64,000 bases of DNA from an uncultured Akkermansia sp. (GTDB lineage: Bacteria; Verrucomicrobiota; Kiritimatiellia; RFP12; JAAYNR01): the NCBI GenBank assembly GCA_964506575.1, contig CAZDLY010000003.1, positions 41,240 to 105,239 of the forward strand, given 5' to 3'. Position numbers and translations under genes: made by a program. Shown one piece after another: positions 4,482-58,598 of the stretch (positions are counted from its first letter, which is position 1; the number at the start of each line of letters is the position of its first letter). The notes beneath the pieces are model-generated. The model was not told where the DNA came from. It ran no database searches and saw only the letters and a list, made by a program, of their open reading frames with translations.

Positions 4482-4580
4482 CGATTGTTTCTCCAGGCCT
4501 CGATACGTAGCGCGCCCCCGCCAGCCCCAAAACGCGCGAAGGCGGCCCAGGCCCGTCATGGCAGCCTGGGTTCACATGCG

Positions 4581-4646
4581 AGGCGCTTGCAAAACGCCAC
4601 GCAAAACCGCGCCTGACGGCCTGTTTTGCGTGGCGTCTTGCAAACT
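4581..4646. repeat. REP-like palindromic element GGCGCTTGCAAAACGCCACGCAAAAC-15 nt-GTTTTGCGTGGCGTCTTGCAAAC
   Basis: Near-perfect 23-bp inverted repeat between gyrA and the GH38 gene. It shares the GCGCTTGCAA core with the elements at 34947 and 35859-35990 and is a likely terminator/insulator hairpin. Confidence 0.55.
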
Positions 4647-4839
4647 GAAAGCCCTGCCGCCCGGCCCCCCCACGGGCACGCGCGACGTTCCCATTGACGC
4701 GCCGCGCCGTGCTCACGGCGCCTGCCGAACCCCATGCGAACGCGGTGAGGATGGCACTTTTTGCCGACCTTGTCAATCCCCCGCAAAAACGAAAACACGG
4801 CCGGCCATTCTCAGGCTGCCAGCGCCTCCATCCCGGGGC

Positions 4840-7335
<2,496 letters not shown>

Positions 7336-7343
7336 GGCGTCCC

Positions 7344-10058
<2,715 letters not shown>

Positions 10059-10065
10059 CGACGCC

Positions 10066-12527: not shown

Positions 12528-12737
12528 TCTCTCACCCGCGGGGGCGCATCCCCGTTTCACTGACTTGCGCATGAAAAGCAAGGTAGGGCGGGGCCGCCGG
12601 ACCCGCCGCTGGCTTGCGGCGCTGCGACGAGCACGCTCGCCGCAGAAGACGGCGGGTCCGGCGGCCCCGCCCTATCTTCGCCGCTGTGATCCATTGGTCG
12701 CAAGGTCAGTGAAACGGGGATGCGCCCCACCCGCGGC
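12528..12737. repeat. Nested palindrome at the duplication junction (30-bp arms CCGCGGGGGCGCATCCCCGTTTCACTGAC/reverse complement, with an inner GGCCGCCGGACCCGCCG/CGGCGGGTCCGGCGGCC pair)
   Basis: Outer arms at about 12531-12560 and 12700-12733, inner arms at about 12592-12608 and 12650-12666. It lies between the paralog B stop and the exbD relic and is a likely strong hairpin/terminator. Confidence 0.5.
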
Positions 12738-28289: not shown

Positions 28290-28585
28290 GTGAACCTCGT
28301 TAAAATGAAGGCACAGCATAACGAAAGCTGCGGCGGAAAACAAGCGCCGCGTGGACCCGGTCAGGGCAAACGCATCTAAATTCAGCTTCTTTTTCATTTG
28401 CATAGGTTAGTTGTTAACAGCGTCTAAAAGGCAATCGGGGTCAGCGCGCGGCGGGTAGGGCTTCGCGCTTTTCCTTTGACATTCGCCCTTATCCTTCGGC
28501 GCGGCGGGACGCCGCCGCCCCCGCTTTCGCGCTTTCCCTGTCGCCAGCTACTGGCGATTTTCTCTGACACCCCCAATATCTTGAT

Positions 28586-28633
28586 CGTCGTCGTCCTCGT
28601 CCTCGATTTCACGATTCGAGGACGAGGACGATG
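28586..28633. repeat. Hairpin built from GTCCTC hexamer repeats (tcgtcctcgtcctcg-loop-cgaggacgaggacga)
   Basis: Perfect 15-bp inverted repeat with an 11-nt loop, upstream of the hypothetical gene at 29221. Confidence 0.7.
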
Positions 28634-28742: not shown

Positions 28743-28850
28743 ATGGCAGTTCTGATGAGGGTCGTTGATCCGTAATCTTAATCGTAATCGTAATCCGTTT
28801 TCCAACAGGAGATTAAGATCAGGATTAGGATTAAGATGGCAATAGCCCTT
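28743..28850 (+). repeat. Structured repeat element copy 1 (CGTAAT hexamer arrays in inverted orientation) beginning with a mini-ORF MAVLMRVVDP
   Basis: A GAGGAGG RBS sits 4 nt upstream of the ATG at 28743, encoding a 10-codon ORF. This is followed by cgtaatcttaatcgtaatcgtaatcc ... ggagattaagatcaggattaggattaag. It is related to the element at 30303-30443 and shares the ATGGCnGTTCTGATGAGG start. Confidence 0.6.
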
Positions 28851-28959
28851 TAACTTGGCGCCATTCAGACCCGTCTCTTGCCGATCTTCGTTCGAATGGT
28901 CTCCATGCTGGTCGGATTGTTGGCGGAAGAGAATGAGAAAGAACGAGCACTGTAAAATC

Positions 28960-29115
28960 GGGGTCGGGGTCGGTATCGGTATCGGGGTCGAAAGGGAACG
29001 GCGTCGTAGCGATGCTCACAAAACTCGGGCAACGGGGATATGCGGTTCACGAGGAAAACGGAAGCGTACCGGACGAATCAAGTCGACCCCGATACCGATA
29101 CCGACCCCGACCCCG
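28960..29115. repeat. Perfect 30-bp inverted repeat of hexamer units (GGGGTC GGGGTC GGTATC GGTATC GGGGTC ... GACCCC GATACC GATACC GACCCC GACCCC) separated by about 93 nt
   Basis: The arms at 28960-28989 and 29084-29113 are exact reverse complements, immediately upstream of the GGAGGCGGGC RBS of the gene at 29221. Confidence 0.7.
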
Positions 29116-29220
29116 ATGGTCCCATCTCCAAAATTAGAATGGCTGCGGACTCTTCTTCTCTTCTTGAGGCCGTCCTCCTGTTGGGGTATACTATTACCGT
29201 CGAACCAGCGGGAGGCGGGC

Positions 29221-30302: not shown

Positions 30303-30443
30303 GCATGGCCGTTCTGATGAGGTCGTTGATTCGTAATCATAATCGTAATCATAATCGTAATCCATTCTCCGCCAGGAGATTAAGATCAAGATTACGATTA
30401 CGATTACGATTACGATTAAGGAGTAACCCTCATCAGAACTGCC
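30303..30443. repeat. Structured repeat element copy 2: long imperfect hairpin (GTTCTGATGAGG..CGTAAT/CATAAT arrays..loop..ATTACG x5..CCTCATCAGAAC)
   Basis: Outer 12-bp stem GTTCTGATGAGG/CCTCATCAGAAC plus about 40-bp inner stems of hexamer repeats. It lies between the convergent genes at 29221 (+) and 30448 (-). ORF 30305..30649 merely reads through it. Confidence 0.65.
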
Positions 30444-30982: not shown

Positions 30983-31384
30983 TCAGGGCATGGGGAGGCC
31001 GCCTGAATTGGTGACGGTCCCGGTATTATGATCGGTAGCGCTCGACGTGCACAAGACCCAGGGGCCCTGGACTGTTCCACCCAAGGTGTAGTCCTTGTTG
31101 CCCGTCTTGCACGTGGGCATTGCACCGCCCTTGATGTAGGCGGCGATTGCATTCGTGTTGGTATCTCCATTTCCCTTGACGTCTGCCGTCGCATCCTTGT
31201 TATCGGCCAGCGCCCACTGGTCAATGGCGTCGTAGATCAGACGCTTGTTGTTATTGCAGGTGCTCTTCTGCGTCGATGTGCGAGCCTTGATCAGGTTCGG
31301 CACGGCAATGACCGCCAGCAACGCAATGATCGCGACAACGATCATGATTTCGACAAGCGTGAAACCTTTTCTGTTGATCTTCAT
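30983..31384 (-). CDS. Type IV pilin-like / pseudopilin protein (copy 1)
   Basis: 133 aa from the ATG at 31384 (GAAGGA RBS). MKINRKGFTLVEIMIVVAIIALLAVIAVPNLIKAR prepilin N-terminus. Identical to the protein at 31638..32039. Confidence 0.8.
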   Translation of the reverse strand: MKINRKGFTLVEIMIVVAIIALLAVIAVPNLIKARTSTQKSTCNNNKRLIYDAIDQWALADNKDATADVKGNGDTNTNAIAAYIKGGAMPTCKTGNKDYTLGGTVQGPWVLCTSSATDHNTGTVTNSGGLPMP

Positions 31385-31576
31385 GATGTGAATCCTTCTT
31401 TTTTTGCTCCCGTTCAACCCAGCACGTAGTGCCGTGTGCGCAACCACGCGCTCTCCTTTTACGCCCGACTGTCAACTAACCGCCCCGGAATGAGACGATC
31501 CAATCGAGCCTTCGGGTATGATTGTAAGCCGAACTCACGCCAAACACAAGAAAATAGTTATCCGGAAAAAATAATA

Positions 31577-31599
31577 ACAGGGCCGCGCCAGAGGCGCGG
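31577..31599 (-). terminator. Intrinsic terminator after pilin copy 2 (same hairpin, followed by TGTTATTATTTTTTCC)
   Basis: Duplicate of the hairpin at 30921-30943 with a T-rich tail. Confidence 0.6.
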
Positions 31600-31637
31600 C
31601 CCTGTCTTCGCATGCACACCATCAAAGCCGATCTTCT

Positions 31638-32039
31638 TCAGGGCATGGGGAGGCCGCCTGAATTGGTGACGGTCCCGGTATTATGATCGGTAGCGCTCGA
31701 CGTGCACAAGACCCAGGGGCCCTGGACTGTTCCACCCAAGGTGTAGTCCTTGTTGCCCGTCTTGCACGTGGGCATTGCACCGCCCTTGATGTAGGCGGCG
31801 ATTGCATTCGTGTTGGTATCTCCATTTCCCTTGACGTCTGCCGTCGCATCCTTGTTATCGGCCAGCGCCCACTGGTCAATGGCGTCGTAGATCAGACGCT
31901 TGTTGTTATTGCAGGTGCTCTTCTGCGTCGATGTGCGAGCCTTGATCAGGTTCGGCACGGCAATGACCGCCAGCAACGCAATGATCGCGACAACGATCAT
32001 GATTTCGACAAGCGTGAAACCTTTTCTGTTGATCTTCAT
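31638..32039 (-). CDS. Type IV pilin-like / pseudopilin protein (copy 2, 100% identical to copy 1)
   Basis: 133 aa identical in sequence. It is part of a roughly 478-bp exact tandem repeat (30923-31400 and 31579-32056) with a 656-bp period. Confidence 0.8.
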   Translation of the reverse strand: MKINRKGFTLVEIMIVVAIIALLAVIAVPNLIKARTSTQKSTCNNNKRLIYDAIDQWALADNKDATADVKGNGDTNTNAIAAYIKGGAMPTCKTGNKDYTLGGTVQGPWVLCTSSATDHNTGTVTNSGGLPMP

Positions 32040-32419: not shown

Positions 32420-33274
32420 ATGTTTAAGAGCATCCAGAAAGAGGTTTGGGCATTCGATTGCGAATGGGTTCCCGACCCGCACGCGGGGATCGTCCTCCAC
32501 GACCTGCCGCCCGCGACCCCGCCACAGCGGGTGCTGGAGGCGATGTGGGCGCACGGGGGCGCCACGGCCGAAGACCCGACCCCGTTCTTGAAGACCGTTC
32601 TCTGCCGCGTCGTCTCGATCGCCGCGGTGCGCCGCCGCGTCGTGAACAACGCGCGCAAGCTCGACCTCCTCTGGCTGCCGCGCAAACCCGAAGACCCCGG
32701 GGAGCAGACGGAGGCCGCCATCCTCTCCAAGTTCCTCGGCGCCGTGGGCAAGGGCAAGCCCCAGCTCGTGGGCTTCAACTCCCGATCGTCCGATCTCAAG
32801 ATCCTCGTCCAGCGGGCGGTGGTCAACGGCCTCGCCGTCCCCGACTTCTGCCGCCGCCCCGACAAGCCGTGGGAGGGGTGCGATTACTTCGCGCGGGACA
32901 ACGAGTGGCACATCGACATGATGGAGATCCTCGGGAGCTGGGGCGGCAAGAGCACCGTCTCGCTCAACGAGATCGCCCGGCTCTCCGGCATTCCGGGCAA
33001 GTTCGGCACCTGCGGCGACGATGTCGCCGGGCTCTGGCTGGCGGGCCGGTGGCGCGAGATCGTCGAATACAACTGCTTCGACGCCCTCACCACCTACCTC
33101 GTCTGGCTGCGCCTCGCCCATTTCGGCGGCCTCTTCACACCCGAACAGTACGCTGAGGAGGAGCAGGAGGTGCGCGACCTGATCTTCGAGCTGGCGGCCC
33201 AGCCGGAAACCGCATTTCTCGAACGCTATCTGGAGGAATGGGATCGGCTGCAGGAGTTGCTGCCGGGGAAATAA
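32420..33274 (+). CDS. Predicted 3'-5' exonuclease, PolB-exonuclease-domain-like (RNase H fold)
   Basis: 284 aa from the ATG at 32420 (GGAAG RBS). Motifs FDCEWVPD (Exo I-like), GFNSRSSDLKIL and YNCFDALTTYLVWLRL (Exo III-like YxxxD). The upstream in-frame extension of ORF 32195..33274 is an R/K/C-rich leader. A TATAAT box sits at 32181-32186. Confidence 0.65.
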   Translation: MFKSIQKEVWAFDCEWVPDPHAGIVLHDLPPATPPQRVLEAMWAHGGATAEDPTPFLKTVLCRVVSIAAVRRRVVNNARKLDLLWLPRKPEDPGEQTEAAILSKFLGAVGKGKPQLVGFNSRSSDLKILVQRAVVNGLAVPDFCRRPDKPWEGCDYFARDNEWHIDMMEILGSWGGKSTVSLNEIARLSGIPGKFGTCGDDVAGLWLAGRWREIVEYNCFDALTTYLVWLRLAHFGGLFTPEQYAEEEQEVRDLIFELAAQPETAFLERYLEEWDRLQELLPGK

Positions 33275-33283
33275 GGAGCGCCC

Positions 33284-33961
33284 ATGGAAGACCCCGCCGC
33301 AATCGCCCGCCTGATCGACCACGCCCTGCTGCAACCCAATCTGACGGACGCCGAGCTGGAGGCCGGCTGCCGCGAGGCGGCCGTGTGGCGCGTGGCCAGC
33401 GTCTGCATCCTCCCGCACGCCGTCGCCCGCTGCGCCGCGATCCTCCGCGGCAGCGGCGTCGCCACGAGCACGGTCATCGGATTCCCGCACGGAGCCCACA
33501 TGACCGTAATCAAGGCCGCCGAAGCCCGCCGCGCGTTGGACGACGGCGCGCAGGAGCTCGACATGGTGGTGAACATCTCCCGGGTGGTCTCCGGCGCCTG
33601 GCGCGACGTCCAAGCCGACATCCACGCCGTGCTCGCCGAAGTCCGCGAGCAGGGAGCCCGGCTCAAGGTGATCTTCGAGACCTGCTACCTCGACGAGACG
33701 CAGAAGATCCGCCTCTGCGAGATCTGTTCGGAACTCGGCGTCGACTGGGTCAAGACCTCGACCGGCTTCGGACCGGCCGGCGCGACCGAGGCCGACGTCC
33801 GCCTCATGCGCCGGCACAGCGCGCCGCAGGTGCAGATCAAGGCCTCGGGCGGCATCCGCGACCTCGCCGCCGTCCTCCGCTTCCGCGACCTCGGCTGCTC
33901 CCGCATCGGCTGCTCCCGCACCGGCGCGATCCTGCGAGCCTGCGGGGCGGGAGCCGGTTGA
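33284..33961 (+). CDS. deoC: Deoxyribose-phosphate aldolase
   Basis: 225 aa with IDHALLQP, VCILP, KVIFETCYL, VKTSTGF and KASGGIR motifs (class I aldolase DeoC). Confidence 0.9.
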   Translation: MEDPAAIARLIDHALLQPNLTDAELEAGCREAAVWRVASVCILPHAVARCAAILRGSGVATSTVIGFPHGAHMTVIKAAEARRALDDGAQELDMVVNISRVVSGAWRDVQADIHAVLAEVREQGARLKVIFETCYLDETQKIRLCEICSELGVDWVKTSTGFGPAGATEADVRLMRRHSAPQVQIKASGGIRDLAAVLRFRDLGCSRIGCSRTGAILRACGAGAG

Positions 33962-33993
33962 GTCTGCCGCGGTCCGTCATCATCGCTCGCTCT

Positions 33994-34758
33994 ATGGACA
34001 CCTCCACCCTCACATCCGCCACCTGGGCGCTTCTGTTTGCGGCGGCCTTCCTCCAGGGCCTCTCCAAGGGCGGCATGCCGGGGGTCTCGATCCTCGCCAT
34101 CCCGCTGGTCGCCATGGTCATCCCGGGCAAGGCCGCGAGCGGGCTGATCCTGCCCATGCTGATCCTGGGCGACCTGTTCGCGCTGGCCCACTGGCACCGC
34201 TCGGCGAGCTGGCGCGACCTGCGGCGCTCCCTGCCGTGGGCGGTGGCCGGCATTGTCGCGGGAACCGCGCTCATCGGACGCATCGACGACGGCCTCATGC
34301 GCCCGATCATCGGCTGGATCGTCCTCCTGATCCTTCTGGTGCACGTCTACCGGCTCTACCTAGCGCCCGGAAATCCCGGCGCCGATCCGACCGAACACCC
34401 GCTGCGGCGGCGGGCGATCGCCGCCTGCATGGGGACGCTGGGAGGCTTCACCACCATGCTGGCCAACGCCGCCGGACCCGTGATGGCCCTGCACTTCCTC
34501 GCACGGCGCCTGCCCAAGGAGACCTTCCTGGGCACCAGCGCCTGGTTCTTCTTCCTCGTCAACTGGATCAAGGTGCCGTTCATGCTCCACCTCCACATGA
34601 TCACCCTCCCCAGCCTGAAGGTGAACCTGCTCATGGTTCCCGCCCTCCTGGTCGGCGTCGCGGCAGGTGTCTTCATCGTGCGCCGGATCAATCAGCAGTC
34701 CTTCGACCTCGCCGTCATACTCCTCACCGCCCTCGCCTGCGTGCGATTGCTGTTGTAA
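33994..34758 (+). CDS. TauE/SafE (DUF81) family membrane exporter
   Basis: 254 aa from the ATG at 33994. Multi-TM protein with a duplicated 4-TM architecture and GxxxG-like motifs. The upstream part of ORF 33238..34758 is an alternate frame of deoC. Confidence 0.75.
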   Translation: MDTSTLTSATWALLFAAAFLQGLSKGGMPGVSILAIPLVAMVIPGKAASGLILPMLILGDLFALAHWHRSASWRDLRRSLPWAVAGIVAGTALIGRIDDGLMRPIIGWIVLLILLVHVYRLYLAPGNPGADPTEHPLRRRAIAACMGTLGGFTTMLANAAGPVMALHFLARRLPKETFLGTSAWFFFLVNWIKVPFMLHLHMITLPSLKVNLLMVPALLVGVAAGVFIVRRINQQSFDLAVILLTALACVRLLL

Positions 34759-34795
34759 GCCCGAGCCGCCTGCATAACCCTGTTTTACAGGCGGA

Positions 34796-34972
34796 GTGTT
34801 CAGGTTTCAGGTTTCAGGTTTCGGGTTTCAGGTTTCGGGTTTCAGGTTTCGGGTTTCGGGTTTCGGGTTTCAGGTTTCAGGTAGTAGCTCGCTCAACCAC
34901 AGTGAGTTGCGCGTTTTCTGAAACCTGAACACTGAAACCTGAAACCGGCGCTTGCAAGGGTTTGCAAGCGCC
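34796..34972. repeat. Heptamer tandem array (GTTTCAG/GTTTCGG x about 12) followed by the partial inverted complement (TGAAACC x4) and a GGCGCTTGCAA-GGG-TTTGCAAGCGCC hairpin
   Basis: Direct repeats at 34796-34882, complementary units at 34918-34946, and the REP-like palindrome at 34947-34972, immediately after the TauE stop. Confidence 0.75.
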
Positions 34973-34977
34973 TCAGC

Positions 34978-35120
34978 CCTTGTTATCAAGCACTTATCAA
35001 CAGTTGATAACAAGTTATTCATAACTATATAAACTATTGCATTGCAGATACTTAAGATGTTATAAATTTGTTCGTAACCTGTCAGTTCGCGGGTTGTTGA
35101 TAACGTGATGATAACTCGTT
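34978..35120. promoter_or_regulatory. AT-rich island (about 30% GC) with multiple TTATCAACA / GTTGATAA palindromic motifs; candidate operator cluster for the downstream XRE regulator, or a DnaA-box/DUE-like element
   Basis: cttgttatcaagcacTTATCAACAGTTGATAAcaagttattcataactatataaactattgcattgcagatacttaagatgttataaatttgttcgtaacc...ggTTGTTGATAAcgtgatgataactcg. There are two exact TTATCAACA motifs and two near-matches flanking an AT-rich stretch. Confidence 0.45.
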
Positions 35121-35318
35121 CTTGATTTGCAGGCCCGATATCGGCGATAGTGTGCGCAACCGGCGCCTCCCTGTTTCGTTGATTTACGCATTCTTGATGG
35201 AAGCGCGGGCGTCCCGCCCGCTTTGGGAAGCACGCGTAACTGCCAACGGTGTGGGCGGGACGCCCGCGCTCCCAGGAAAGCACCGAGACGGGGATGCGCC
35301 CGTGCACGCACGAAATCC

Positions 35319-35858
35319 ATGGAACGTTTATCTCCAGAACTGGCGGGGCGGCTGCGTGACGCGCGGCGTGTGAAGGGGCTGTCGCAGCATGCGCTGGCTC
35401 GTGAGGCCGGGTGCACGCAGTCGGCCGTGAGCATGATGGAGCTGGGGCGGCCGGATGCCGTGTCGCGCGAGACGTTGCGCAAAATCGGCGCGTTGCTGGA
35501 TGTCGAGGTGGGGGAGGCGGACGGCGCGCGGCCTGCGGGAGGGGAATGCCCGGCGGCGGGCGGGCGCGTCTGCTGTCCGCAGGCCGAGTGTCCCTCGAAC
35601 GTCCCGTTTGCGGTAGCCGGCTCGGTTGTTTTCCAGCCGCGGCCGCAGCCTGCGGGCCGCGCGGGGGTCTACTGCGGCTTTTGCGGCGAAGTGCTGCTGA
35701 CGGCCTGTCCTGTCTGCGCGCGGCCGCTGGGCGAAGGCGGCCATTGTCGCGAGTGCGGCGCGGCCTATGTGAATCCGCCCGCCGCTCCCGTCCTGACGCC
35801 CGCCGCCTGGGCCGCCGAACGGCGCAGGCAGATCGCCGAATGGCGCGCGTTGCTGTAA
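35319..35858 (+). CDS. XRE-family helix-turn-helix transcriptional regulator with a C-terminal Cys-rich (zinc-ribbon-like) region
   Basis: 179 aa from the ATG at 35319. HTH region LAGRLRDARRVKGLSQHALAREAGCTQSAVSMMELG, then CxxC..CP..C and CPVC..CREC clusters. Confidence 0.7.
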   Translation: MERLSPELAGRLRDARRVKGLSQHALAREAGCTQSAVSMMELGRPDAVSRETLRKIGALLDVEVGEADGARPAGGECPAAGGRVCCPQAECPSNVPFAVAGSVVFQPRPQPAGRAGVYCGFCGEVLLTACPVCARPLGEGGHCRECGAAYVNPPAAPVLTPAAWAAERRRQIAEWRALL

Positions 35859-35990
35859 GAGGCGCTTGCAAGAGAGGAGTCAGGAGTCAGAATACAGGAG
35901 TCAGAATAATCGAACACCCATTCTGAATACTGAATACTGGCTTCTGAATACTGCGCTTGCAAAACCGACGAAGGAGGTTTTGCAAGCGCC
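35859..35990. repeat. REP-like element: GGCGCTTGCAA, then heptamer repeats (GAGTCAG/AATACAG), their inverted complement (ATTCTGA/ATACTGA), then the GCGCTTGCAAAAC-12 nt-GTTTTGCAAGCGCC hairpin
   Basis: Sits exactly between the convergent XRE gene (stop 35858) and the 637-aa membrane protein gene (stop 35991) and is a probable bidirectional terminator. Confidence 0.7.
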
Positions 35991-37904
35991 TTATGGACCA
36001 CGCTGCCAGGTGAGGATGGACAGGTTGCCCTCTTCCGCCAGCTGGGCGAGGCGCGTCTGGAGGGCGGCATCGAGCGCTTCGTCGCGGTCCCAGACGATGA
36101 GGAGCGTCCGCTTTGAGACGGCGCCCGACTGGCGGCGCTCGCTCATGATAACGGCCATATCCTCGAGCATCGCGCGGCAGGGGGCGTCACCGCTGATGAC
36201 CGGAACGTAGCGGCCGAACCACGCGGCGTCGAAGGCGAACTCGCTGCCCGTCGGCAGCCTCGCCGCGCCATAGCGGAGGATCGGCACGCGCCACAGCGGA
36301 ATTTCGGCGAACGTGATTTTTCGCTCGCCGCGGCGGAGCAGGCGGACATAGCGGACCAGTTGCGGCGGCCAGGTGATCACTCCCTTGCCCAGCCACAGGC
36401 CCCCCGCGCCAAGCCCGCGCAGCCGCGCGCGGGTCCATCGGCCCAGGCGCGCCAGCGCGCGGGGCAGCCCGCGAAGCAGGACGGCTTCCCGGTCATCGAG
36501 CCACCGCGCGACGCGGGCCAGCCCCCGAGCCACGGCGCCCCGATGCTGCCACAGCCGCGGACCCAGACGCGCCAGCGCCAACGCCAGGGCCGCCGTTCCC
36601 ATCCAGAGGCTCCGTCCGGCGCCAGCCAGCCGCCGCGGGAGGGGCTGGCCGGCCGCCGCCCCTGCGGTTGCCCGGCTCAGACCGTCGTCCGGCCGCTTGG
36701 ACTGCCGCCCCAGGAACCGGGACAACTCGCCCAGTATCCGCTGCACATGATCATCCATCCGCTCCAGGAAGCGGGTTGTGACCTCCACACGCCGATGCCA
36801 CGACGGCGCGATCCGGCTCCACAGACCCGTCGCGAACCGGGCGCTCCGCGCGAGCCTCTCGCCCAGGGCCTGCCAGCGCCGCCGCAGATAAGCCCCGGCC
36901 TGGGGCCACACCGTGTCGGCATGGTCTCCGAACCACGGAATGAACAGGGAGAGCCGTGACACGGCGGACTTCGACGCCCAGAGCGGGCGCCGGCCGAAAT
37001 AGATCACGTTCTCGCCCTTGCGGATCGCGCGTCCGAGGAAGGCTTCGGGAGGCGCATACGGCTCGTCGCCCGGCCGCAGCGTCTGCGTGGGTCGCTTGGG
37101 CGAGAACGCATCGATCGACCCGCCCGACAGCGGCAGCGGCCACCACGTGTTCCACGGTGCGTTAAACGTCACGACGTAATTCCACAGGAGCGTCATCACT
37201 GCGGCGATCAACACCAGATTGATCAGCATCCGGGAGAGGCGATGGATCTGGCGGACGACGCGAAGCTGGGCCTCTTTCATGTAAACCACTTTTTTCTCGT
37301 GAGCCAGCCCCTCAGCCTCCGCGTCTGACCCCCCATTCTCGTCGAGCGACACCGGAGCGCCGGCGCCGTCCACCTGATTCGTCCCCCGGACCTTGGCCAC
37401 CTGATTCGTCCCCCGGACCTTGGCGCCCGGCTGGGTCGCGCCCGGAACGGTGCGGCTCTTTTTGCCTCTCTCGCGCCAGGTTGGCGTCGTCCCGGAATAG
37501 CCGCCCTGCACGAGATCCTCGGGAGTATCCTCCGCGAAGGTCACTCCGGCGGCGAGATCTTTCGTTTTTTTGGGGGTTGCGGCCGCCTCATCGCCGGTTT
37601 CGGCGTTCGGGGTCTGTTCCGCGGCGGCGGCCTCATCCGCCTTCTCTTCGGCTTCCAGCGCTTTCTCCGCCGCCATCTGTTTCCGCATCTCTTCGGCCCG
37701 GTCGAGTTTGATCCCCGAGAACCAGTAATCGTTCTTCAGTCCATAGAGCATCGAGGCGAGCAGCGCCAGCCCCACGGCGAGCAGGTAGACGCGCGGCCGC
37801 GAGGCCTGGCGCATCACCCGCACGAGGACATAGAGAGACCCCGCCCAGGCGATGAGCGCCAAGGCCCCCAGCAGACCCGTGTAGGGGAAGAGTTTGTCGA
37901 TCAT
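35991..37904 (-). CDS. Hypothetical membrane protein (637 aa)
   Basis: ATG at 37904 overlaps the upstream stop (ATGA). N-terminal TM helices, a central Lys/Ala/Glu-rich charged segment and a hydrophobic middle region. Last gene of cluster 2. Confidence 0.65.
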   Translation of the reverse strand: MIDKLFPYTGLLGALALIAWAGSLYVLVRVMRQASRPRVYLLAVGLALLASMLYGLKNDYWFSGIKLDRAEEMRKQMAAEKALEAEEKADEAAAAEQTPNAETGDEAAATPKKTKDLAAGVTFAEDTPEDLVQGGYSGTTPTWRERGKKSRTVPGATQPGAKVRGTNQVAKVRGTNQVDGAGAPVSLDENGGSDAEAEGLAHEKKVVYMKEAQLRVVRQIHRLSRMLINLVLIAAVMTLLWNYVVTFNAPWNTWWPLPLSGGSIDAFSPKRPTQTLRPGDEPYAPPEAFLGRAIRKGENVIYFGRRPLWASKSAVSRLSLFIPWFGDHADTVWPQAGAYLRRRWQALGERLARSARFATGLWSRIAPSWHRRVEVTTRFLERMDDHVQRILGELSRFLGRQSKRPDDGLSRATAGAAAGQPLPRRLAGAGRSLWMGTAALALALARLGPRLWQHRGAVARGLARVARWLDDREAVLLRGLPRALARLGRWTRARLRGLGAGGLWLGKGVITWPPQLVRYVRLLRRGERKITFAEIPLWRVPILRYGAARLPTGSEFAFDAAWFGRYVPVISGDAPCRAMLEDMAVIMSERRQSGAVSKRTLLIVWDRDEALDAALQTRLAQLAEEGNLSILTWQRGP

Positions 37905-39490
37905 TGTTTACGGAGCTTCCGCGTGAGTTCAAGGTAATTGGTGAACGAGTAATAGATGATGTTCACACCCATCTCCAGCGCGCCTTCGGCCTTCTGGGCG
38001 GAGAGGCCGCCGCGGTTGTTCTTCCAGGCGTCGTTGATATCGCCCGGATGGTAGAAGACCCCCCAGCGTCCCTTGTACTTGATGCCCAGGGCCCGCGTGC
38101 CGCCATGATGCCACAGAGGCGGGGCGCCGTTTCGGAACGCGAACGGAAGCTGGAAGATCACGTCATCGTCGGCGATATTCAGCAACGGCTCGCCGGGGAA
38201 GACCCGACGGATGAATCCCCGGAAATGCTGGTCCCATTGCGGACTCCCGCAATCGGCAAACAGCATGCCGCCGCCCTGGATGTACTCACGCAGGATTCTG
38301 ACATCCCGGTCCGAAACCCCGATGCCGCCATCCCCGGTCATGTAGACGAACGGCGGCGCAAACCCCTTGGGATAGCGGGCGAGCAGCGCGATGCTGTGGG
38401 CCTCGGTCTTGGTCGAGGTCTTGAACTGGGTCAGTTGACGGAAGTAGTCCAGGAAGTTCAGGTCTGCGCGCGTCGCGGTCTCCATCCCGTCATCCCAGCC
38501 GGAGCCGTCGTATTTTAACCGGATGAAGCGCACGAGACCCTCGTCCATGCCATCCGGCCAGCCGCCCGTGTTGCCGCCGCCCACACCCATCTTGCCCCCT
38601 TTTGAATGCACGCGGCTGGTATTGGTCTCGTAGGTCGAGCGGGACACTTTCTCGACCTCCTCCGAAACCGGGGAATCGTCCAGCTTCGGAAAGTTGAACG
38701 TGATCGGGGAGTATTTGTTGATGATCGGGCGTTTTTTGGGTTTCTTGACCTTGACCACCTGAATTTTTGTGGCAACGGCGAGATTCCCGCTCCCTTTCTT
38801 GATGCGGTAGGGGTTGACGCAACCGGGAACGAGCGTCAGAAGCCAGGGCAGGATGAAGATGATGAAAAAATGGAGGTGGCTGCTGGCCCACAGACTCTTG
38901 CGATAGCGCGGGTCGCCGCCGTGGGTTCGGATATTTTCGAGAAACCGGTCTCCCGTGGCCGGCTCGGTCTCGTCATTGCCGAGCCACTGGCGGATCGCCG
39001 CGCGCCGCCACGCGAGGAGGTACAGAGCGGCGATCACCGCGCTCGCGAGCAGGACCGGCCAGAGGAGCTCCCACCGCCACATGAACACGTCATACGCGGC
39101 GGCCTTCTTCCCGTCCAGGCTCAGCCCCTTCTTCATGATGACGCCGGTCGCCTGATGCGCGACCACCCCGCACATCAGCGCCAGGGCGTAGAAGAGCAGA
39201 CAGGCCTTGCGGTAGAGGCTGAGCGTGATCCGGTTCCGGAGGAAGACGCTGATGCCCGCCGTGGCCAGCAGCAGGGTCGCGGTCAGGCACGCGACCAGCG
39301 AGGTGAACAGGATCAGGCGGTCCACGCCCTCATAACCCAACATCTCCGCGACATCGGCATGGCGGAGGCTCCACAGAAAATAGCGATCCGGCAACTCCAG
39401 CGAAAAAGTCCCGCACACCCACGCTGCCAGACTCATCAAGAGACACAGCAGCGGCGGCCAGGTGAACAACTTATGTCGTCTGTTGGGCAT
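37901..39490 (-). CDS. DUF4159 domain-containing membrane protein
   Basis: 529 aa with a multi-TM N-terminal half and a C-terminal domain (RFIRLKYDGSGWDDG...MLFADCGSPQWDQHFRGFI...VNIIYYSFTNY) that matches my recollection of the DUF4159 family, which is common in PVC bacteria and Bacteroidetes. Confidence 0.75.
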   Translation of the reverse strand: MPNRRHKLFTWPPLLCLLMSLAAWVCGTFSLELPDRYFLWSLRHADVAEMLGYEGVDRLILFTSLVACLTATLLLATAGISVFLRNRITLSLYRKACLLFYALALMCGVVAHQATGVIMKKGLSLDGKKAAAYDVFMWRWELLWPVLLASAVIAALYLLAWRRAAIRQWLGNDETEPATGDRFLENIRTHGGDPRYRKSLWASSHLHFFIIFILPWLLTLVPGCVNPYRIKKGSGNLAVATKIQVVKVKKPKKRPIINKYSPITFNFPKLDDSPVSEEVEKVSRSTYETNTSRVHSKGGKMGVGGGNTGGWPDGMDEGLVRFIRLKYDGSGWDDGMETATRADLNFLDYFRQLTQFKTSTKTEAHSIALLARYPKGFAPPFVYMTGDGGIGVSDRDVRILREYIQGGGMLFADCGSPQWDQHFRGFIRRVFPGEPLLNIADDDVIFQLPFAFRNGAPPLWHHGGTRALGIKYKGRWGVFYHPGDINDAWKNNRGGLSAQKAEGALEMGVNIIYYSFTNYLELTRKLRKQ

Positions 39491-39540
39491 GTGGTATCAG
39501 CGTCCGTCGTTCGGAAACCATGCGGGTGGGGCGGGGTGCT

Positions 39541-40029
39541 TCACTTGCCGCCGAGATTGGGTTCGTCCAAAACCGTGCTCAGCTCGCTGCCCATCGTGGG
39601 CATATCCTCGGGGGCGGCGACGTCGGTCATCCGCCTGGCCACGGCCGAGTTGGTGGCGCCCGCGGGAAAACCCTCCAGATAGCGCGACTGGGCCGTGTTC
39701 GTGTTGGCGGGGGGTGCATTGGTGGTGGTGGCCGCGGCCGGCACGGTGTTGGTGGCGCCGGCCACGCCATTCGTGCCGATCACCGCCGCGGCGGCCGCGG
39801 CAGCCTGCGCCTTGGCCTGGCGCTTCTTTTCGGCCTCTGCCGCAGCCTTGCGCTCCACCGCCCCCTCCGGGTCGACATAGGTGTCGCGGATGTACGTGAG
39901 CGATGTCATGCCGACGACCACCACGTGGATGGCGATGGCGACAATCGTCCAGAAGGCGATGCGCTTGCCCGCGAAGTTGGAAAGCAGGCGGTCCAGGTTC
40001 TGCGTCGATTGCTCGGTTGTCTCATTCAT
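39541..40029 (-). CDS. TolA/TonB-like membrane anchor protein (short cytoplasmic N-term, one TM helix containing a His, Ala/Lys/Glu-rich periplasmic segment)
   Basis: 162 aa from the ATG at 40029 (AAGGAGAA RBS). The ORF track's GTG start at 40071 is less likely. TM helix FWTIVAIAIHVVVVGMTSL, then AAEAEKKRQAKAQAAAAAAA and a T/N/P-rich tail. It directly follows exbD-exbD. Confidence 0.55.
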   Translation of the reverse strand: MNETTEQSTQNLDRLLSNFAGKRIAFWTIVAIAIHVVVVGMTSLTYIRDTYVDPEGAVERKAAAEAEKKRQAKAQAAAAAAAVIGTNGVAGATNTVPAAATTTNAPPANTNTAQSRYLEGFPAGATNSAVARRMTDVAAPEDMPTMGSELSTVLDEPNLGGK

Positions 40030-40067
40030 GGCGGTCCTATTCTCCTTGTCCCGGTCAGTGATCCCTG

Positions 40068-40484
40068 TCACTCGTTCTTGCGTTTCTCGCCGATGGCTAC
40101 GATGACGCCCCCGGCGCTGGCGATGGCATCGAGCACCGGCTCGAAGACCCGTTTTGAGGCGAAGCGGTCACACTTGAACAGCACCATCCGCGCTTTCGGC
40201 GTGGTCTTGTTCTCGAGCGCCTTCTCGATCAGCAGCTTGACGGTCTGCACGTCATTGACCAGCTCCCCGTCCAGGAAGATGGCGCCCGCCTCATCGATCA
40301 CCACCGAGATTTTGGCATTCTCCACGGCCTTGAGGTCCACCGCATCGGCGGGCTTGTATTTGATCTTGCCCTCCTGGGCGAAGTTGCTGCACACCATGAA
40401 GAAGATGTTCAGCAGAAAGGCGATGTCGCCCATGCTGGTGGTCGGCACCGAGATGCCCATCTTCTTTCTGCGGCGCAGTTTCAC
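40068..40484 (-). CDS. exbD: Biopolymer transport protein ExbD/TolR
   Basis: 138 aa with an ExbD-like N-terminal TM (GDIAFLLNIFFMV) and periplasmic domain. GTG start 2 nt after the upstream stop; an alternative ATG lies at 40460. Confidence 0.8.
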   Translation of the reverse strand: MKLRRRKKMGISVPTTSMGDIAFLLNIFFMVCSNFAQEGKIKYKPADAVDLKAVENAKISVVIDEAGAIFLDGELVNDVQTVKLLIEKALENKTTPKARMVLFKCDRFASKRVFEPVLDAIASAGGVIVAIGEKRKNE

Positions 40485-40486
40485 GG

Positions 40487-40897
40487 CTATTTCGTCTCCG
40501 TCATGATGCCGACCACGCCGCCGGCTGCGGAAATGGCCGCCATGACCTCGTAATAGTTCTGATAATCGGTCTCCGGCGTGGCGTCCATCAAGATGACCTT
40601 GGCCGCATCCTTCCGGTCGGCCAGTTTCATTTCGGCCAGCTTGGCCTTGAACGCCTCCATCGAGACATCCGCTTCCAGGAACTTGATCTGGTTCGCCTTC
40701 AGCGTGACCGTCGGCGTCTTCTCCTCGGTTTTCTTCTCTTCTTCCTTGCTGGCGGGCAGCTCGGTCTCGAACCCGACGATGTTCTTGAGCGATGTCGTGA
40801 TGATAAAGAAGATGATGAGCAGGAAGGCGATGTCCGAGAACGAATCGGTCGGAACACCGCCGTCCGGCCGCCGCTTGATGAATGGCTTGAACGACAT
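40487..40897 (-). CDS. exbD: Biopolymer transport protein ExbD/TolR
   Basis: 136 aa with the SDIAFLLIIFFIIT TM motif and a GAGAGGGGAGGG RBS. Confidence 0.85.
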   Translation of the reverse strand: MSFKPFIKRRPDGGVPTDSFSDIAFLLIIFFIITTSLKNIVGFETELPASKEEEKKTEEKTPTVTLKANQIKFLEADVSMEAFKAKLAEMKLADRKDAAKVILMDATPETDYQNYYEVMAAISAAGGVVGIMTETK

Positions 40898-40917
40898 CGC
40901 GCCCTCCCCTCTCCGGC

Positions 40918-41577
40918 CTACGCCTTGGCCGGCGCCACGTGGTGCGTCAGGGAGACATGATCGAGAATCTCGGAACCGGCCTCAGCGGCCTCGATCTCGA
41001 TGGACTCCGAGCACCCCATGAAATAATGGTGCGGGATCACGGCCATCATGGCGATCAGCAGGCCGGCGGCCGTGGTGATGAGCGCCTCCGAAATACCGGA
41101 GGCCACGATCGCGGCGTCGACGTCGCCCGCGGCGGCGATGGCGCCGAACGACCGGATCATGCCGGTCACGGTGCCGGTCATCCCGAAGAGCGGCGCCGAC
41201 GTGCCGATGAACGAGAGGATGTTCATCCGTTTCTCGACGATGTTCATGGCCATCCGGGCGTAATCGGCCATCGCGTCCTGCATGATGGCGCGGAGCGTCT
41301 CGCCGTTGGAGGTGACCACCCGGTGCCGGATGTAGGATTGCAGCCCCGCGGCCATCACGGCCGACACCGGGCCCGGCGTCGTGAGGCAGATGGCCAGCGC
41401 GTCGGCATACTTGCCCGCGATCATCTGGTTCTGCACCTTGGCCCGGAGCGTCCGGACGTCCACGCGGCTGTTGGCGCGGAAGGCCATCCACCGATCCAGC
41501 GCCACGGCAACCGCCAGGACGCTTTCGGCCATCAGGATAATCATCAGGGGTCCGCCATCAATCAGTGTCTTTAACAT
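40918..41577 (-). CDS. exbB: MotA/TolQ/ExbB proton-channel family protein
   Basis: 219 aa with 3 TM helices and a conserved C-terminal core (FGMTGTVTGMIRSFGAIAAAG...EALITTAAGLLIAMMAVIPHHYF). AAGAGGA RBS. Confidence 0.9.
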   Translation of the reverse strand: MLKTLIDGGPLMIILMAESVLAVAVALDRWMAFRANSRVDVRTLRAKVQNQMIAGKYADALAICLTTPGPVSAVMAAGLQSYIRHRVVTSNGETLRAIMQDAMADYARMAMNIVEKRMNILSFIGTSAPLFGMTGTVTGMIRSFGAIAAAGDVDAAIVASGISEALITTAAGLLIAMMAVIPHHYFMGCSESIEIEAAEAGSEILDHVSLTHHVAPAKA

Positions 41578-54539: not shown

Positions 54540-54600
54540 CAAAAAACCGCCATCCCCCCCGGGGCCGTTCCCGGCCCGGCGATGAATGGCGGTTCCTGCA
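54540..54600 (-). terminator. Putative intrinsic terminator after kamA (AACCGCCAT...ATGGCGGTT stem followed by TTTTTTG on the minus strand)
   Basis: Minus strand reads ggaaccgccattcatcgccgggccgggaacggccccgggggggatggcggttttttg. Confidence 0.4.
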
Positions 54601-56195: not shown

Positions 56196-58313
56196 TCATA
56201 AGAAACCTCGCTTGAGAACCACGCTCAACACTGCCAGATCGGCCGGCGTCACGCCGGGAACACGGCCGGCCTGGCCCAAATTGACCGGACGCACCCGGCT
56301 GAGCTTCTCCCGGCACTCATACCCCAGCGCCGGGATCTTCCCATAGTCCACCCACGACGGGATCACATCGGCCTCCATCCGCAACGCCCGCTCCGCCTGC
56401 CGCCGCTCCTGCTCGATGTACCCGCGATACGCGATTTCCAACTCCACCTGTTCGACAACGACCGCGGGAAGCGCGGGATCGGCACACGGCAGATCCGCAT
56501 ACCGCGCCCCGGGGCGGGCCAGATGCCGCGACGCCGCGGCGCCATCGGCGAGATGACGTGCATCGAGCCGCGCACATTCAGCCGCGATCAACCGGGCATA
56601 CCGCTCCGTCTCATCCCGAAACACCGGATCGGCCAGCCCCAACCGCTGCGCATGGGCAAGCATCCGAAACCGCGCATTGTCCTGCCGCAGCAACAGCCGC
56701 CGCTCCGCCCGCGACGTGAACATGCGATACGGCTCGTTCGTCCCCTTCGTCACCAGATCGTCAATCATCACGCCGATGTACGACTCCTGGCGGCCGAGCA
56801 GCAGCGGATTCTCATCCCGGACACGCATCGCCGCATTGACTCCGGCAACAAAACCCTGGGCCGCCGCCTCCTCATAACCGGTCGTGCCGTTAATCTGCCC
56901 CGCAAAGAACAAGCCCGCATGCCGTTTGGACTCCAGCCCGTGCGTCAGCTCGCGGGCGTCGATAGCGTCGTACTCGATCGCGTAGGCGTACGCCAGAAAC
57001 CGGGCCTGCTCCAAACCGGGTATCAGCCGGACCAGACGCTCCTGAACCTCGCGAGGCAGGCTGTTGGATATCCCGTTCGGGTAAATCCAGGCTGAGTCGC
57101 CCCGCCCCTCAGGCTCCAAAAAGACATGATGGCTCTCCTTGTCGCCAAATTTGACGATCTTGTCCTCCAGCGAGGGGCAATACCGCACCCCCGTCCCGCT
57201 GATCCCGCCGCCATACAACGCGCTGCGCGCGAGGTTTTCCCGAATCACCTGATGACAGGCGGACGTCGTGTGGGTCAGCCAGCAGGAGACCTGCCGGGCG
57301 CCCCCCAGGACGCTATCGTGTGGCGGGCTGATGCCAGCCGCGCGATGATCCGCCGCTGGCGACTCCGGATACGCCCTGTTCCACGTGGAACATTCATTCG
57401 GCGCTCCGCCGCGGCTCGTCTCCGAGCCCGGGCACACATCCGCCGCTGGTGACGACGGGAACGCCGTGTTCCACGTGGAACATTCACCCGGCGCCCCGCC
57501 GGGGTCCGTCTCCGAGCACACATCCGCCGCTGGCGTCGCCGGGAACGCCCTGCTCCGCGTGTAACCATCGGCCCGCGCTGCCCGCACACGCGCGCCACGC
57601 CACGAAAAGAGCGGCGGCGGCTCGTCGCCCGCCTGCTCCTGGGTCTGGCAAAAATCAATGGAGGCCGGGTCGAGGCGCGGGGGTGTTCCGGTTTTCAACC
57701 GAAGCCTTTCATATCCGGCGTCGCGCAGGCTATCGGAGAGGGCCTGGGCGGCGGCGCGCCCGTCGCCTCCGCCCGGCGAGACCTCATGCCCGACATGAAT
57801 CGCCCCCCCCAGCGCCGTCCCGGTTGTCAGCACGACGCAACGACCGGCGATGCGCCCGTGTCCGGCTGTCTCGACGCCGGCCAGCCGCCGCTGCGGTCCG
57901 GTGTCCGCAAAGGCCAGCGCGATGACCTCATCCTCCATCACCCAAAGATTCGGCGTGGATTCGACGACCGCCCGCAGGCGCGCCGTGTAGGCGGCCTTGT
58001 CGCATTGCACCCGCGTGGCCCGCACGGCGGGGCCGCGGCTTACATTGAGCACCCGGAACTGGATGCCGGTGCAATCCGCGTTGAAACCCATCTCGCCGCC
58101 CAGTGCATCCAGTTCATAGACCAAGTGGGATTTAGCCAGGCCGCCGATGGCCGGGTTGCAGGGCATTCGACCGATCGCGTCTCGGTGAGCGGTGATCAGC
58201 AGGGTTTTGCAGGTCATCCGGGCGGCGGCAAGCGCCGCCTCGGACCCGGCATGTCCGCCGCCGACGACAATCACATCCCACCCGTCCCCGCTGGTCCGAC
58301 CGATGCTTTTCAT
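56196..58313 (-). CDS. mnmG: tRNA uridine 5-carboxymethylaminomethyl modification enzyme MnmG (GidA), carrying an internal minisatellite-encoded insertion of about 90 aa
   Basis: GidA signatures ([38 protein letters not shown]-terminal [14 protein letters not shown]). Start at the ATG at 58313. Residues encoded at about 57348-57567 are 2.5 tandem copies of an 87-nt unit. Confidence 0.92.
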
Positions 58314-58491: not shown

Positions 58492-58598
58492 CAAATGGGG
58501 AGCCCCGTCACGCCGATGCGTTCATGGGGGGTTGATGTCGACCGGATATTGACTACTTATCAACAAGTTATGATTGGAGTCTAAGTGCTGATTCACAA

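Follow-up and report, generated by a model that had tools for sequence, protein, structure and literature searches.

The closest described systems are the bacterial MITEs, such as Correia/NEMIS of Neisseria, ERIC, Nezha of the Nostocales and Chunjie of Geobacter (reviewed in PMC3184786 and PMC10969869). Like these elements, the repeat family considered here is small (about 120-250 bp) and non-coding, carries terminal inverted repeats and short direct repeats, has very stable predicted hairpins and is present in several copies per genome. It is also intergenic, lies beside gene ends and would be co-transcribed with its neighbours, as bacterial MITEs are. Correia transcripts are cleaved by RNase III. 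Unlike the described MITEs, the present family has terminal repeats that are each perfectly palindromic and subterminal arms made of heptamer microsatellites whose length varies; there is no known parent IS, and conservation of the resident copies far exceeds that of neutral DNA.

Another kind of dispersed repeat is the REP, with its BIME and REPIN-RAYT arrangements (PMC3116915, PMC3733652). The resemblance lies in the extragenic palindromes of about 30 nt, the inverted doublets that give longer hairpins, the mosaic clusters, the sites after stop codons and between convergent genes, and the long persistence within a lineage. The present family differs in lacking the GTAG/CGTC tag, in having target-site duplications and in sharing its termini with distant genomes; moreover, no RAYT is seen in the window, i.e., the whole 64-kb stretch of DNA that was analysed.

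Internal tandem units of variable number are known from the pneumococcal BOX, a small dispersed element of the form boxA-boxB(n)-boxC (PMC3049150), and from a minisatellite-containing MITE of P. gingivalis, in which the number varies between copies and strains (PMC4596501). The units of both are 22-45 nt long, whereas those described here are 7 nt and are set out as a pair of complementary arrays, which together make up the stem. Cyanobacterial heptamer sequences, termed STRR, were reportedly described by Mazel et al. in 1990. A heptanucleotide-repeat stem, P6b, is found in the Nostoc tRNA-Leu intron (PMC4476775). The present arrays share with the cyanobacterial repeats the 7-nt period, units ending in TCAG (reverse complement CTGA), variable copy number, an intergenic tandem arrangement and hairpin stems built by paired inverted arrays. 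The cyanobacterial arrays, however, were seen without GGCGCTTGCAA terminal hairpins and belong to another phylum. Kiritimatiellia/Lentisphaerota-type bacteria are known chiefly through metagenomes; to our knowledge, hardly any work has been done on their small mobile elements, and we know of no MITEs described from these PVC bacteria.

In the window, the exact 11-mer GGCGCTTGCAA occurs five times, at 4582, 34947, 34962 (minus strand), 35861 and 35980 (minus strand), all within three intergenic sites. The chance expectation from dinucleotide shuffles (n = 100) is 0.04, and none of the 100 shuffles held five or more copies. One further copy with a single mismatch lies at 35952, and seven of the nine TTGCAA hexamers of the window fall inside the three sites. 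A sequence-only reading had proposed a dispersed repeat-hairpin family with this core and had suggested counting the motif and testing its intergenic bias. That count, made within the window, finds the motif enriched and present in intergenic sites exclusively, and the family is real. The same reading had described heptamers within the stems and two blocks on either side of an XRE gene, and both descriptions hold for the elements E6 and E7, as detailed below.

E6 occupies the spacer between the TauE and XRE genes. A putative left target-site duplication, AGCCC (34758..34762), directly abuts its terminus and takes in the final base of the TauE stop codon. On the plus strand, this is followed by the left terminal hairpin (34763..34796), whose degenerate core GAGCCGCCTGCATAACCCTGTTTTACAGGCGGAG was recognised by alignment with the intact left cores GAGACGCTTGCAAAACTCTGTTTTGCAAGCGGAG of L144 and GAGCCGATTGCAAAAC... 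of L153. Next comes the left heptamer array (34797..34882, plus strand), with 12 units of TGTTCAG, GTTTCAG or GTTTCGG; TRF, which was used for all period-7 arrays, places it at 34799-34882 with period 7, 12.0 copies and 92% matches. The central loop (34883..34917, plus strand) has a small apical hairpin and then TTTT; it is identical in the orthologous locus L022 and conserved in L044 and L144, and its hairpin is the sole terminator-like match in the region. The right array (34918..34946, plus strand) consists of four units, CTGAAAC or CTGAACA, complementary to the left array (4.1 copies over the same interval by TRF). The right terminal core hairpin CCGGCGCTTGCAAGGGTTTGCAAGCGCCTC (34945..34974, plus strand), identified by core-motif match and copy alignment, completes the element and is directly abutted by the putative right duplication AGCCC (34975..34979).

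E7 lies between the XRE gene and a convergent gene of 637 aa. Its left terminus, GAGGCGCTTGCAAGAGAG (35859..35876, plus strand), is a left core hairpin from which the loop and second arm have been deleted, as judged against L080, where the full version, GAGGCTCTTGCAAAACCCTTCTGGGGTGTTTGCAAGAGAG, stands at 5975-6012. The left array (35877..35908, plus strand) reads GAGTCAG GAGTCAG AATACAG GAGTCAG AATA (TRF: 35875-35904, 4.3 copies), the central loop lies at 35909..35922 (plus strand), and the right array (35923..35951, plus strand) reads CTGAATA CTGAATA CTGGCTT CTGAATA C (TRF: 35923-35953, 4.4 copies). The right terminal core hairpin, TGCGCTTGCAAAACCGACGAAGGAGGTTTTGCAAGCGCCTT (35952..35992, plus strand), was placed by the core motif and copy alignment, and shares its final 2 nt with the stop codon of the convergent gene. 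A perfect core hairpin of 13 bp had been claimed here; it in fact has 14 perfect pairs, GCGCTTGCAAAACC / GGTTTTGCAAGCGC. Both blocks fill the intergenic space right up to the neighbouring stop codons, and their predicted RNA folding energies are -107.9 kcal/mol (z = -8.9) and -56.1 kcal/mol (z = -7.3).

The third site, E1 (4580..4651, plus strand), lies between the gyrA stop and the start of a GH38 mannosidase gene. Its left terminus, GAGGCGCTTGCAAAAC, is intact and is followed by an inverted repeat of 21 bp that is unrelated, then by GTCTTGCAAA and one CTGAAAG unit. The family terminus is present in the left arm only, the right arm being GTCTTGCAAAC, and the two GCAAAAC motifs that had been read as tandem are not so, the order being TTGCAAAAC-GCCAC-GCAAAAC. 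Judging from this structure, E1 is a partial or decayed member of the family, a mere relic.

The full layout is seen in copies from other genomes: a GAG-GCGCTTGCAAAAC hairpin, then nnnTCAG heptamers in an array, a loop (15-150 nt), complementary CTGAnnn heptamers and a second core hairpin ending in GCGCCTC. In all full copies, the terminal inverted repeats are GAGGCGCTTGCAAAAC... and, at the opposite end, ...GTTTTGCAAGCGCCTC. Each terminus is palindromic by itself and the two are inverted repeats of each other; therefore, a copy, whether as DNA or as RNA, can fold either into a pair of small hairpins plus an extended heptamer stem or into a single giant hairpin. The copies are 119-251 bp in size, and gene calling finds no gene in them.

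The same termini and layout are found at unrelated loci (L044, L080 and L085 with two copies each, L058, L004, L111, L116, L132, L144, L153, L124 and L013), in at least four genomes. CAMBQN01 has at least three copies, two in L022, orthologous to E6 and E7, and an inverted E6-type copy on another contig (L044) with 91-92% identity over about 140 nt. Similarly, JBIJDW01 has at least four E7-type copies (two each in L080 and L085), and CAZQKI01 at least three (L004, L111 and L116). The family had been taken for genome-specific; its termini instead recur in several Kiritimatiellia/Lentisphaerota-type MAGs and in termite-gut contigs, and several uncultured bacteria of this type are, as far as sequence comparison can tell, carriers of the candidate MITE.

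Direct repeats at the ends of the copies point to transposition. Exact direct repeats of 4-5 bp flank six of ten independent two-core copies, directly abutting GAG...CTC (AGCCC, AACA, TGAG, TCTG, GTTT and GAAG), and one further copy has 3 bp. Among 90 mismatched flank pairs taken as a control, not one has as much as 3 bp (binomial P = 7e-13). The length is uneven, 3-5 bp, with no target consensus, and no duplication is found at three of the ten two-core copies, E7 among them, nor at any solo core hairpin. No clean filled-versus-empty pair emerged for the family; at the kinase locus of L044, considered for this purpose, the orthologues are not collinear and have different downstream genes, and L184 retains only TGAGGCGCTTGAAAACCC after the stop codon.

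We therefore favour, with a probability of about two in three, a MITE family with palindromic terminal repeats and slipping heptamer stems, whose copies resident at this locus are retained by the host. A MITE-like origin had been offered as one alternative for these repeats, and it fits their terminal inverted repeats, their 4-5 bp target-site duplications, their several copies per genome and their lack of coding capacity. A transposase encoded elsewhere would recognise the GAGGCGCTTGCAAAAC ends, and the element would insert via a staggered cut of 4 bp, occasionally 5 bp, usually within a few bases of a stop codon. After insertion, the heptamer tracts lengthen and shorten, mostly on the G/T-rich arm, and the host would keep the resident copies, as their rate of change suggests.

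No autonomous IS or transposase with the family termini was found among the window ORFs, and no pair of termini 0.4-4 kb apart in any fetched locus encloses an ORF of transposase size. The IS5 family, which we take to have GAG ends and 3-4 bp duplications, was considered as the parent and set aside as a misfit with the IS5 target preference. The core motif has no match in PLSDB, and Rfam gives just sub-threshold miRNA-like hairpin matches at gathering and permissive thresholds. The elements hold no tRNA or tmRNA genes. A viral origin was rejected (0 IMG/VR matches), as were a sigma-54 promoter (wrong spacing for -24/-12), a DNA uptake sequence in inverted pairs (coding DNA lacks the motif, which is also much too rare) and an integron attC (no R''/R' core-site pattern and no cassette array). 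A hammerhead ribozyme was likewise rejected: within the hexamer elements E3 and E5, CUGAUGAG simply forms one stem arm, and Rfam finds no hammerhead.

The arrays vary much as the proposed slippage would predict. E6-type left arms have 12 units in the window, 4 in the orthologue L022, 6 in L044, 23 in L144 and 4 in L153, i.e., 4-23 units, versus 3-4 on the right arm. The E7 right array is one unit shorter in each of L022, L175 and L176 than in the window. The microsatellites that the sequence-only reading placed inside the stems are thus borne out, with copy numbers that differ among orthologues and paralogues. The pattern fits replication slippage.

Between the window and L022, E6 differs at 3/156 sites and E7 at 2/127, together 1.8%, as against 108/521 (20.7%) at four-fold degenerate sites and 18/73 (24.7%) in the adjacent spacer (Fisher P = 2e-16). 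Base pairing is maintained too. In the E7-type core, the stem and the loop, GACGAAGGA, are conserved in nine copies from at least four genomes; the stem shows one compensatory U-A to G-C change, and all four one-sided changes give G-U on the strand with nnnTCAG in the 5' arm. In 12 of 15 copies, this strand gives a better fold than the complementary one. The resident copies change about ten times slower than neutral DNA, which is not expected for purely selfish MITEs; therefore, the host probably puts E6 and E7 to use. They may perhaps act as 3'-end hairpins. The most likely role would be that of stable hairpins between TauE, XRE and the convergent 637-aa gene, which might end or insulate transcription, or else serve in mRNA protection or processing. 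With this roughly ten-fold conservation, the locus offers a clear, testable case of a transposon remnant in host service.

A reading without mobility deserves to be weighed here. The hairpins could have evolved in the host as terminators or mRNA stabilisers, in which case their likeness would stem from local duplication, recombination or convergence, and slippage would have produced the heptamers, with selection acting on these only for stem length. The strong purifying selection on the resident copies suits this proposal, as do the position of all closely examined copies, right after or overlapping a stop codon, and the TTTT after the E6 apical hairpin. In L169, moreover, this position 3' of XRE is taken by a different, hexamer-type hairpin element, as though a strong hairpin of any kind would suffice. 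Function alone, however, leaves unexplained the terminal sequence of 13-16 nt and the loops that are conserved exactly across unrelated loci and genomes, and the flanking direct repeats as well. Copies are also found in either orientation with respect to the upstream gene. The core hairpins lack a U-tract, the next bases being CTCAGCCC and CTTATGG, and canonical U-tract terminators are used elsewhere in the window (31560-31600 and 54540-54600). This proposal fares best among the rivals, yet we consider it unlikely.

The REP/BIME-like reading, which had also been put forward, sees the core hairpins as extragenic palindromes in inverted pairs (REPINs), spread by a single-copy RAYT (Y1/HUH) via single-stranded intermediates. 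The palindromic units of about 30 nt are indeed strictly extragenic, tight on stop codons and often between convergent genes, inverted pairs form the larger hairpins, resident copies are conserved and long-lived, and solo cores without duplications are common. The better folding of one strand, noted above, would suit a single-strand mechanism. Yet IS200/IS605-type and RAYT mobility produces no target duplications, and six of the ten two-core copies have exact ones. The foot of the palindrome carries no GTAG or CGTC tag, the defining feature of the two REP superfamilies (PMC3733652), its termini being GAGGCGC...GCGCCTC. No Y1_Tnp domain was found among the ORFs of the window, and the termini are common to distant genomes of 39-67% GC, unlike vertically inherited REPIN-RAYT pairs. 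This reading is thus decidedly unlikely, and because the tag is absent and target duplications are present, it is concluded that the family is best described as a MITE with palindromic terminal repeats, not a REP/RAYT system.

A further reading makes the heptamer arrays the functional part, either as periodic nnnTCAG protein sites or as a length-variable (phase-variable) switch on XRE, with the core hairpins as mere boundaries. The TCAG/CTGA part is retained in all subfamilies (GTTTCAG, GGGTTCA-G, GAGTCAG, AATACAG), Nostocales plasmids contain the E7 unit series in inverted arrays, Beggiatoaceae, Cyanobacteria and Bacteroidetes have arrays of the heptamer TAACTGA (PMC4679880), and close relatives differ in array length. 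However, the termite-gut copies L124 and L013 have termini and target-site duplications but no arrays. The upstream array lies about 440 nt before the XRE start codon, outside the conserved operator region; XRE orthologues function with no array at all; and metagenome copies from two samples show no array-length polymorphism. We hold this reading to be highly improbable. A broader proposal is doubtful: the nnnTCAG arms may be a conserved functional module and not just debris of slippage, common to the PVC elements, the Nostocales plasmid arrays and the TAACTGA arrays of Beggiatoaceae and Bacteroidetes, which would mark a cross-phylum superfamily of mobile hairpins or a common heptamer-reading protein, hosts having domesticated copies as conserved gene-boundary RNA/DNA structures. 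The heptamer vocabulary shared with the Nostocales is also a concrete handle on the old question of why 7-nt repeats abound in some bacteria.

Chance clustering of low-complexity repeats and GC-rich palindromes without a common origin has a negligible probability and may be taken as already refuted: the 20-base palindromic pattern does give, among the matches listed, many single ones in unrelated taxa that resemble ordinary terminators, but five exact 11-mers against 0.04 expected, whole elements 85-98% identical at other loci and an architecture common to the copies speak against it.

With the MITE reading preferred, there remains the gene that the two blocks bracket. The XRE-family HTH regulator gene, with its Cys-rich C-terminal tail (35319..35858, plus strand), is not cargo of the elements. 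The outer termini of E6 and E7, 1230 bp apart, have the correct orientation for a composite transposon, but this was rejected, as XRE orthologues are found both without elements and with different ones. Around orthologues of 54-73% identity such elements are absent, though the neighbouring genes also differ in these distant cases, and an orthologue of 77% identity is preceded by a solo core and followed by a hexamer-type element. A special link to the XRE gene, as had been suggested, thus does not stand, and the bracketing is, by comparison of orthologues, lineage-specific. Upstream of all XRE orthologues, regardless of their neighbours, and outside E6 lies a conserved AT-rich promoter/operator region of XRE with TTATCAACAGTTGATAA palindromes (34980..35130, plus strand). 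The TTATCAACA cluster was considered as oriC or DnaA boxes and rejected; the boxes travel with the XRE gene in every orthologue and are therefore its operators.

No population polymorphism is seen in two further metagenome contigs of this organism, which are the same base for base throughout the region. Between L175 and L176, which have an identical XRE protein and flanks that differ at 1 of about 355 bases, the TauE-XRE spacer holds an E6-type element in L176 and an inverted E7-type element in L175, one strain having exchanged its upstream element for a different member of the family. The putative MITE family generates length-variable tracts, sits precisely at gene ends and breaks assemblies; the contig of L176, for instance, terminates inside a heptamer array.

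The core motif and hairpin sites described in the sequence-only reading are present in the window, a metagenome contig (JGI 3300044991/3300044990) with a G+C content of 65%. The motif GGCGCTTGCAA is found five times exactly, against an expectation of 0.04, and is confined to three intergenic sites, which also hold seven of the window's nine TTGCAA hexamers. Two of them, E6 (34763-34974) and E7 (35859-35992), flank the gene of an XRE regulator (35319-35858). TRF assigns 12.0 heptamers to the left array of E6 (34799-34882), 4.1 complementary units to its right array (34918-34946), and about 4.3 and 4.4 units to the arrays of E7 (35875-35953). Both blocks fold well beyond their shuffles (z = -8.9 for the E6 block and -7.3 for the E7 block). 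The third site, E1 (4580-4651), had been counted among the members of the family; it has one intact terminus and nothing else in common, and its two GCAAAAC units are not in tandem. E1 is, at 4580, a relic.

Species-representative genomes were scanned with the pattern GCGCTTGCAA-N(0-30)-TTGCAAGCGC. Among the matches listed, the majority were scattered single palindromes, and one set was clearly related to the window. A syntenic orthologue (L022) shows 81-92% identity across window positions 32996-41009, and a different contig of the same MAG (L044) carries an inverted E6-type copy. Several E7-type copies are present in a Kiritimatiellia MAG from the same lake series (L080, L085), copies with CCTGAAC heptamers in a ‘Lentisphaerales’ MAG (L004, L111, L116), and one more related copy at L058; a metagenome scan added further copies, including L132, L144, L153 and L124. 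Side-by-side comparison revealed a single architecture: a left core hairpin, GAG-nCGCTTGCAAAAC...GTTTTGCAAGCG-GAG, is followed by tandem nnnTCAG heptamers, a 15-150 nt loop, three or four CTGAnnn units complementary to the heptamers, and a right core hairpin ending in GCGCCTC. The left core of E6 is degenerate, and that of E7 is shortened to GAGGCGCTTGCAAGAGAG, its intact version being found at L080 5975-6012. The nearest named relatives of the window proteins belong to ‘Lentisphaerae/Lentisphaerota’ and ‘Kiritimatiellia’ MAGs; its housekeeping genes include gyrB, gyrA, ileS, mnmG and mnmE. A plus-strand PIN-domain ORF (10044-10688) separates the gyrB start region from three successive squalene-cyclase-like repeat proteins.

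Several observations support the movement of these elements. When the conserved GAG...CTC termini are taken as the boundaries, six of the ten independent copies with two cores lie between exact direct repeats (AGCCC, AACA, TGAG, TCTG, GTTT and GAAG), and one further such copy has a 3-bp target-site duplication. None of 90 mismatched pairings of left and right flanks reached 3 bp (binomial probability 7e-13), and no direct repeats flank the solo core hairpins. Copies occur at unrelated loci within single MAGs, indicating dispersal, and a 119-bp version without the array occupies two loci with differing duplications on termite-gut contigs (L124, L013). The XRE proteins encoded at the loci L175 and L176 are identical, and about 355 bases of flanking DNA show a single difference; in the gap between XRE and the upstream TauE gene, L176 carries an E6-type element and L175 an inverted E7-type element, the latter with a compensatory T-A to G-C change in its core. 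The neighbours of the E6-type copy at L044 2980-3172 are a nucleoside kinase gene on one side and, on the other, the U-tract terminator belonging to a 5S rRNA gene on the minus strand; at L184, where the kinase orthologue is 92% identical and the genes beyond it differ, just TGAGGCGCTTGAAAACCC is left after the stop codon.

The family had been suggested to be ‘REP/BIME-like or MITE-like’, and the second label fits better. Like MITEs, the elements are small and non-coding, end in inverted repeats, show target duplications and occur in several copies, whereas the palindromic nature of the terminal repeats, the heptamer-microsatellite arms and the strong conservation of resident copies are unusual for MITEs. 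The GAG ends and 3-4 bp duplications would at most hint at the IS5 family, whose target preference does not fit; searches of the window, the fetched loci and PLSDB turned up no parent IS. In shape and position the elements do resemble REPINs. They lack, however, the GTAG/CGTC tag that defines REP/REPIN-RAYT systems (PMC3733652), they have target duplications, and no Y1 domain was seen among the window ORFs; therefore, the family is not filed under REP/REPIN-RAYT.

That the stems accumulate unit-length microsatellites is borne out, as unit number varies among both orthologues and paralogues. The left arm of E6 has 12 heptamers in the window versus 4 in L022; the E7 copies of L022, L175 and L176 are each one unit shorter than E7 itself. 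Among paralogues, the left arm has 4, 6 or 23 heptamers and the right arm 3-4. Growth is nearly always on the G/T-rich arm, and the pattern fits what replication slippage would give. The TCAG/CTGA portion is retained in all subfamilies. In 12 of 15 copies, G-U pairs give the strand whose 5' arm bears the nnnTCAG heptamers a better fold than its complement has. A blastn search of PLSDB with E7 matched 47 plasmids, nearly all of them Nostocales plasmids, the matching segment being the array GAGTCAG GAGTCAG AATACAG GAGTCAG. These plasmid arrays form inverted pairs around interiors of 100-250 nt and are devoid of GGCGCTTGCAA cores. On Nostocales plasmids (L165-L168), the inverted arrays consist of AGGAGTC, AGAATTC and AGAAGTC heptamers, which the unit series of the E7 left arm matches by up to 93-94% across 36-44 nt; the interior between the arrays of Nostoc N6 contains a gene for a ‘four helix bundle protein’. 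The likeness may reflect either common origin or convergence. Comparable repeats in the literature are the P6b stem of a Nostoc tRNA-Leu intron, made of heptanucleotide repeats (PMC4476775), and TAACTGA arrays (PMC4679880).

The resident copies are strongly conserved between the window and L022. With loops counted, E6 differs at 3 of 156 positions (1.9%) and E7 at 2 of 127 (1.6%), as against 108 of 521 four-fold degenerate sites (20.7%) in TauE, XRE and the convergent 637-aa gene beyond E7, and 18 of 73 positions (24.7%) in the non-operator spacer at 35017-35089 (Fisher P = 2e-16). The window and L022 have the same degenerate E6 left core, which shows the copies to be orthologous by descent rather than products of re-insertion. 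Within the core stem of the E7 type, each one-sided change preserves a G-U pair on the strand that bears nnnTCAG. Such conservation is unexpected for selfish copies and suggests that E6 and E7 are used by the host. The start of E6 lies four bases past the stop codon of TauE, and E7 fits exactly into the gap between two convergent stop codons, contributing two bases of one. In the window (35991-35993), in L080 (about 7488-7492) and in L085 (about 170-175), the right terminus runs into the stop codon of the convergent gene and supplies part of it. The positions of E6 and E7 point to a putative role at transcript 3' ends. The core hairpins have no U-tracts; canonical U-tract terminators are present elsewhere in the window (31560-31600 and 54540-54600).

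At least two more hairpin-repeat families are present in the genome. Hexamer-arm hairpins (E2-E5) occur at 28585-28631, 28745-28840, 28957-29117 and 30305-30440, with arms of TCGTCC, CGTAAT/GATTAC and TCGGGG/TCGGTA, the last with perfect arms of 35 bp. E3 and E5, two copies of a single family, stand on either side of a DUF7309 gene. Relatives were found at L080 3880-4110 and 4798-4820, L116 about 600-650 and L169 3525-3640. A third, MITE-like family with GGGGCGCATCCCCGTTTC termini (12541-12728 and 35160-35305) has 24-nt termini, GGGGCGCATCCCCGTTTCACTGAC, and a G+C-rich inner hairpin. Its second copy, upstream of XRE, is shared with L175 and L176 and missing from the orthologous site of L022, a clean empty site. 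Thus, the XRE neighbourhood is an accumulation zone for small elements. Two near-identical prepilin-type (N_methyl) genes stand in tandem at 30983-31384 and 31638-32039, with identical stretches of at least 55 nt.

At L169, the XRE orthologue (77% identity) has a solo core upstream, a hexamer-type element downstream, in the position of E7, and nothing more. Orthologues at 54-73% identity are without such elements and retain the operator TTATCAACAGTTGATAA. From this presence and absence, together with the turnover of the elements, it follows that the bracketing of XRE is a local and recent state, which stems from a pair of gene boundaries prone to insertion or favouring hairpins and not from a property of the XRE gene. 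The TTATCAACAGTTGATAA-type palindromes upstream of XRE (34980-35130), kept in all its orthologues despite differing neighbours, probably serve as operators for the regulator itself. A further exact box of this type lies at 58557-58565, between mnmE and mnmG. The latter gene (GidA) carries an in-frame 90-nt tandem repeat at 57348-57565 (2.5 copies, 81% matches), and its GIDA Pfam domain falls in two separate stretches.
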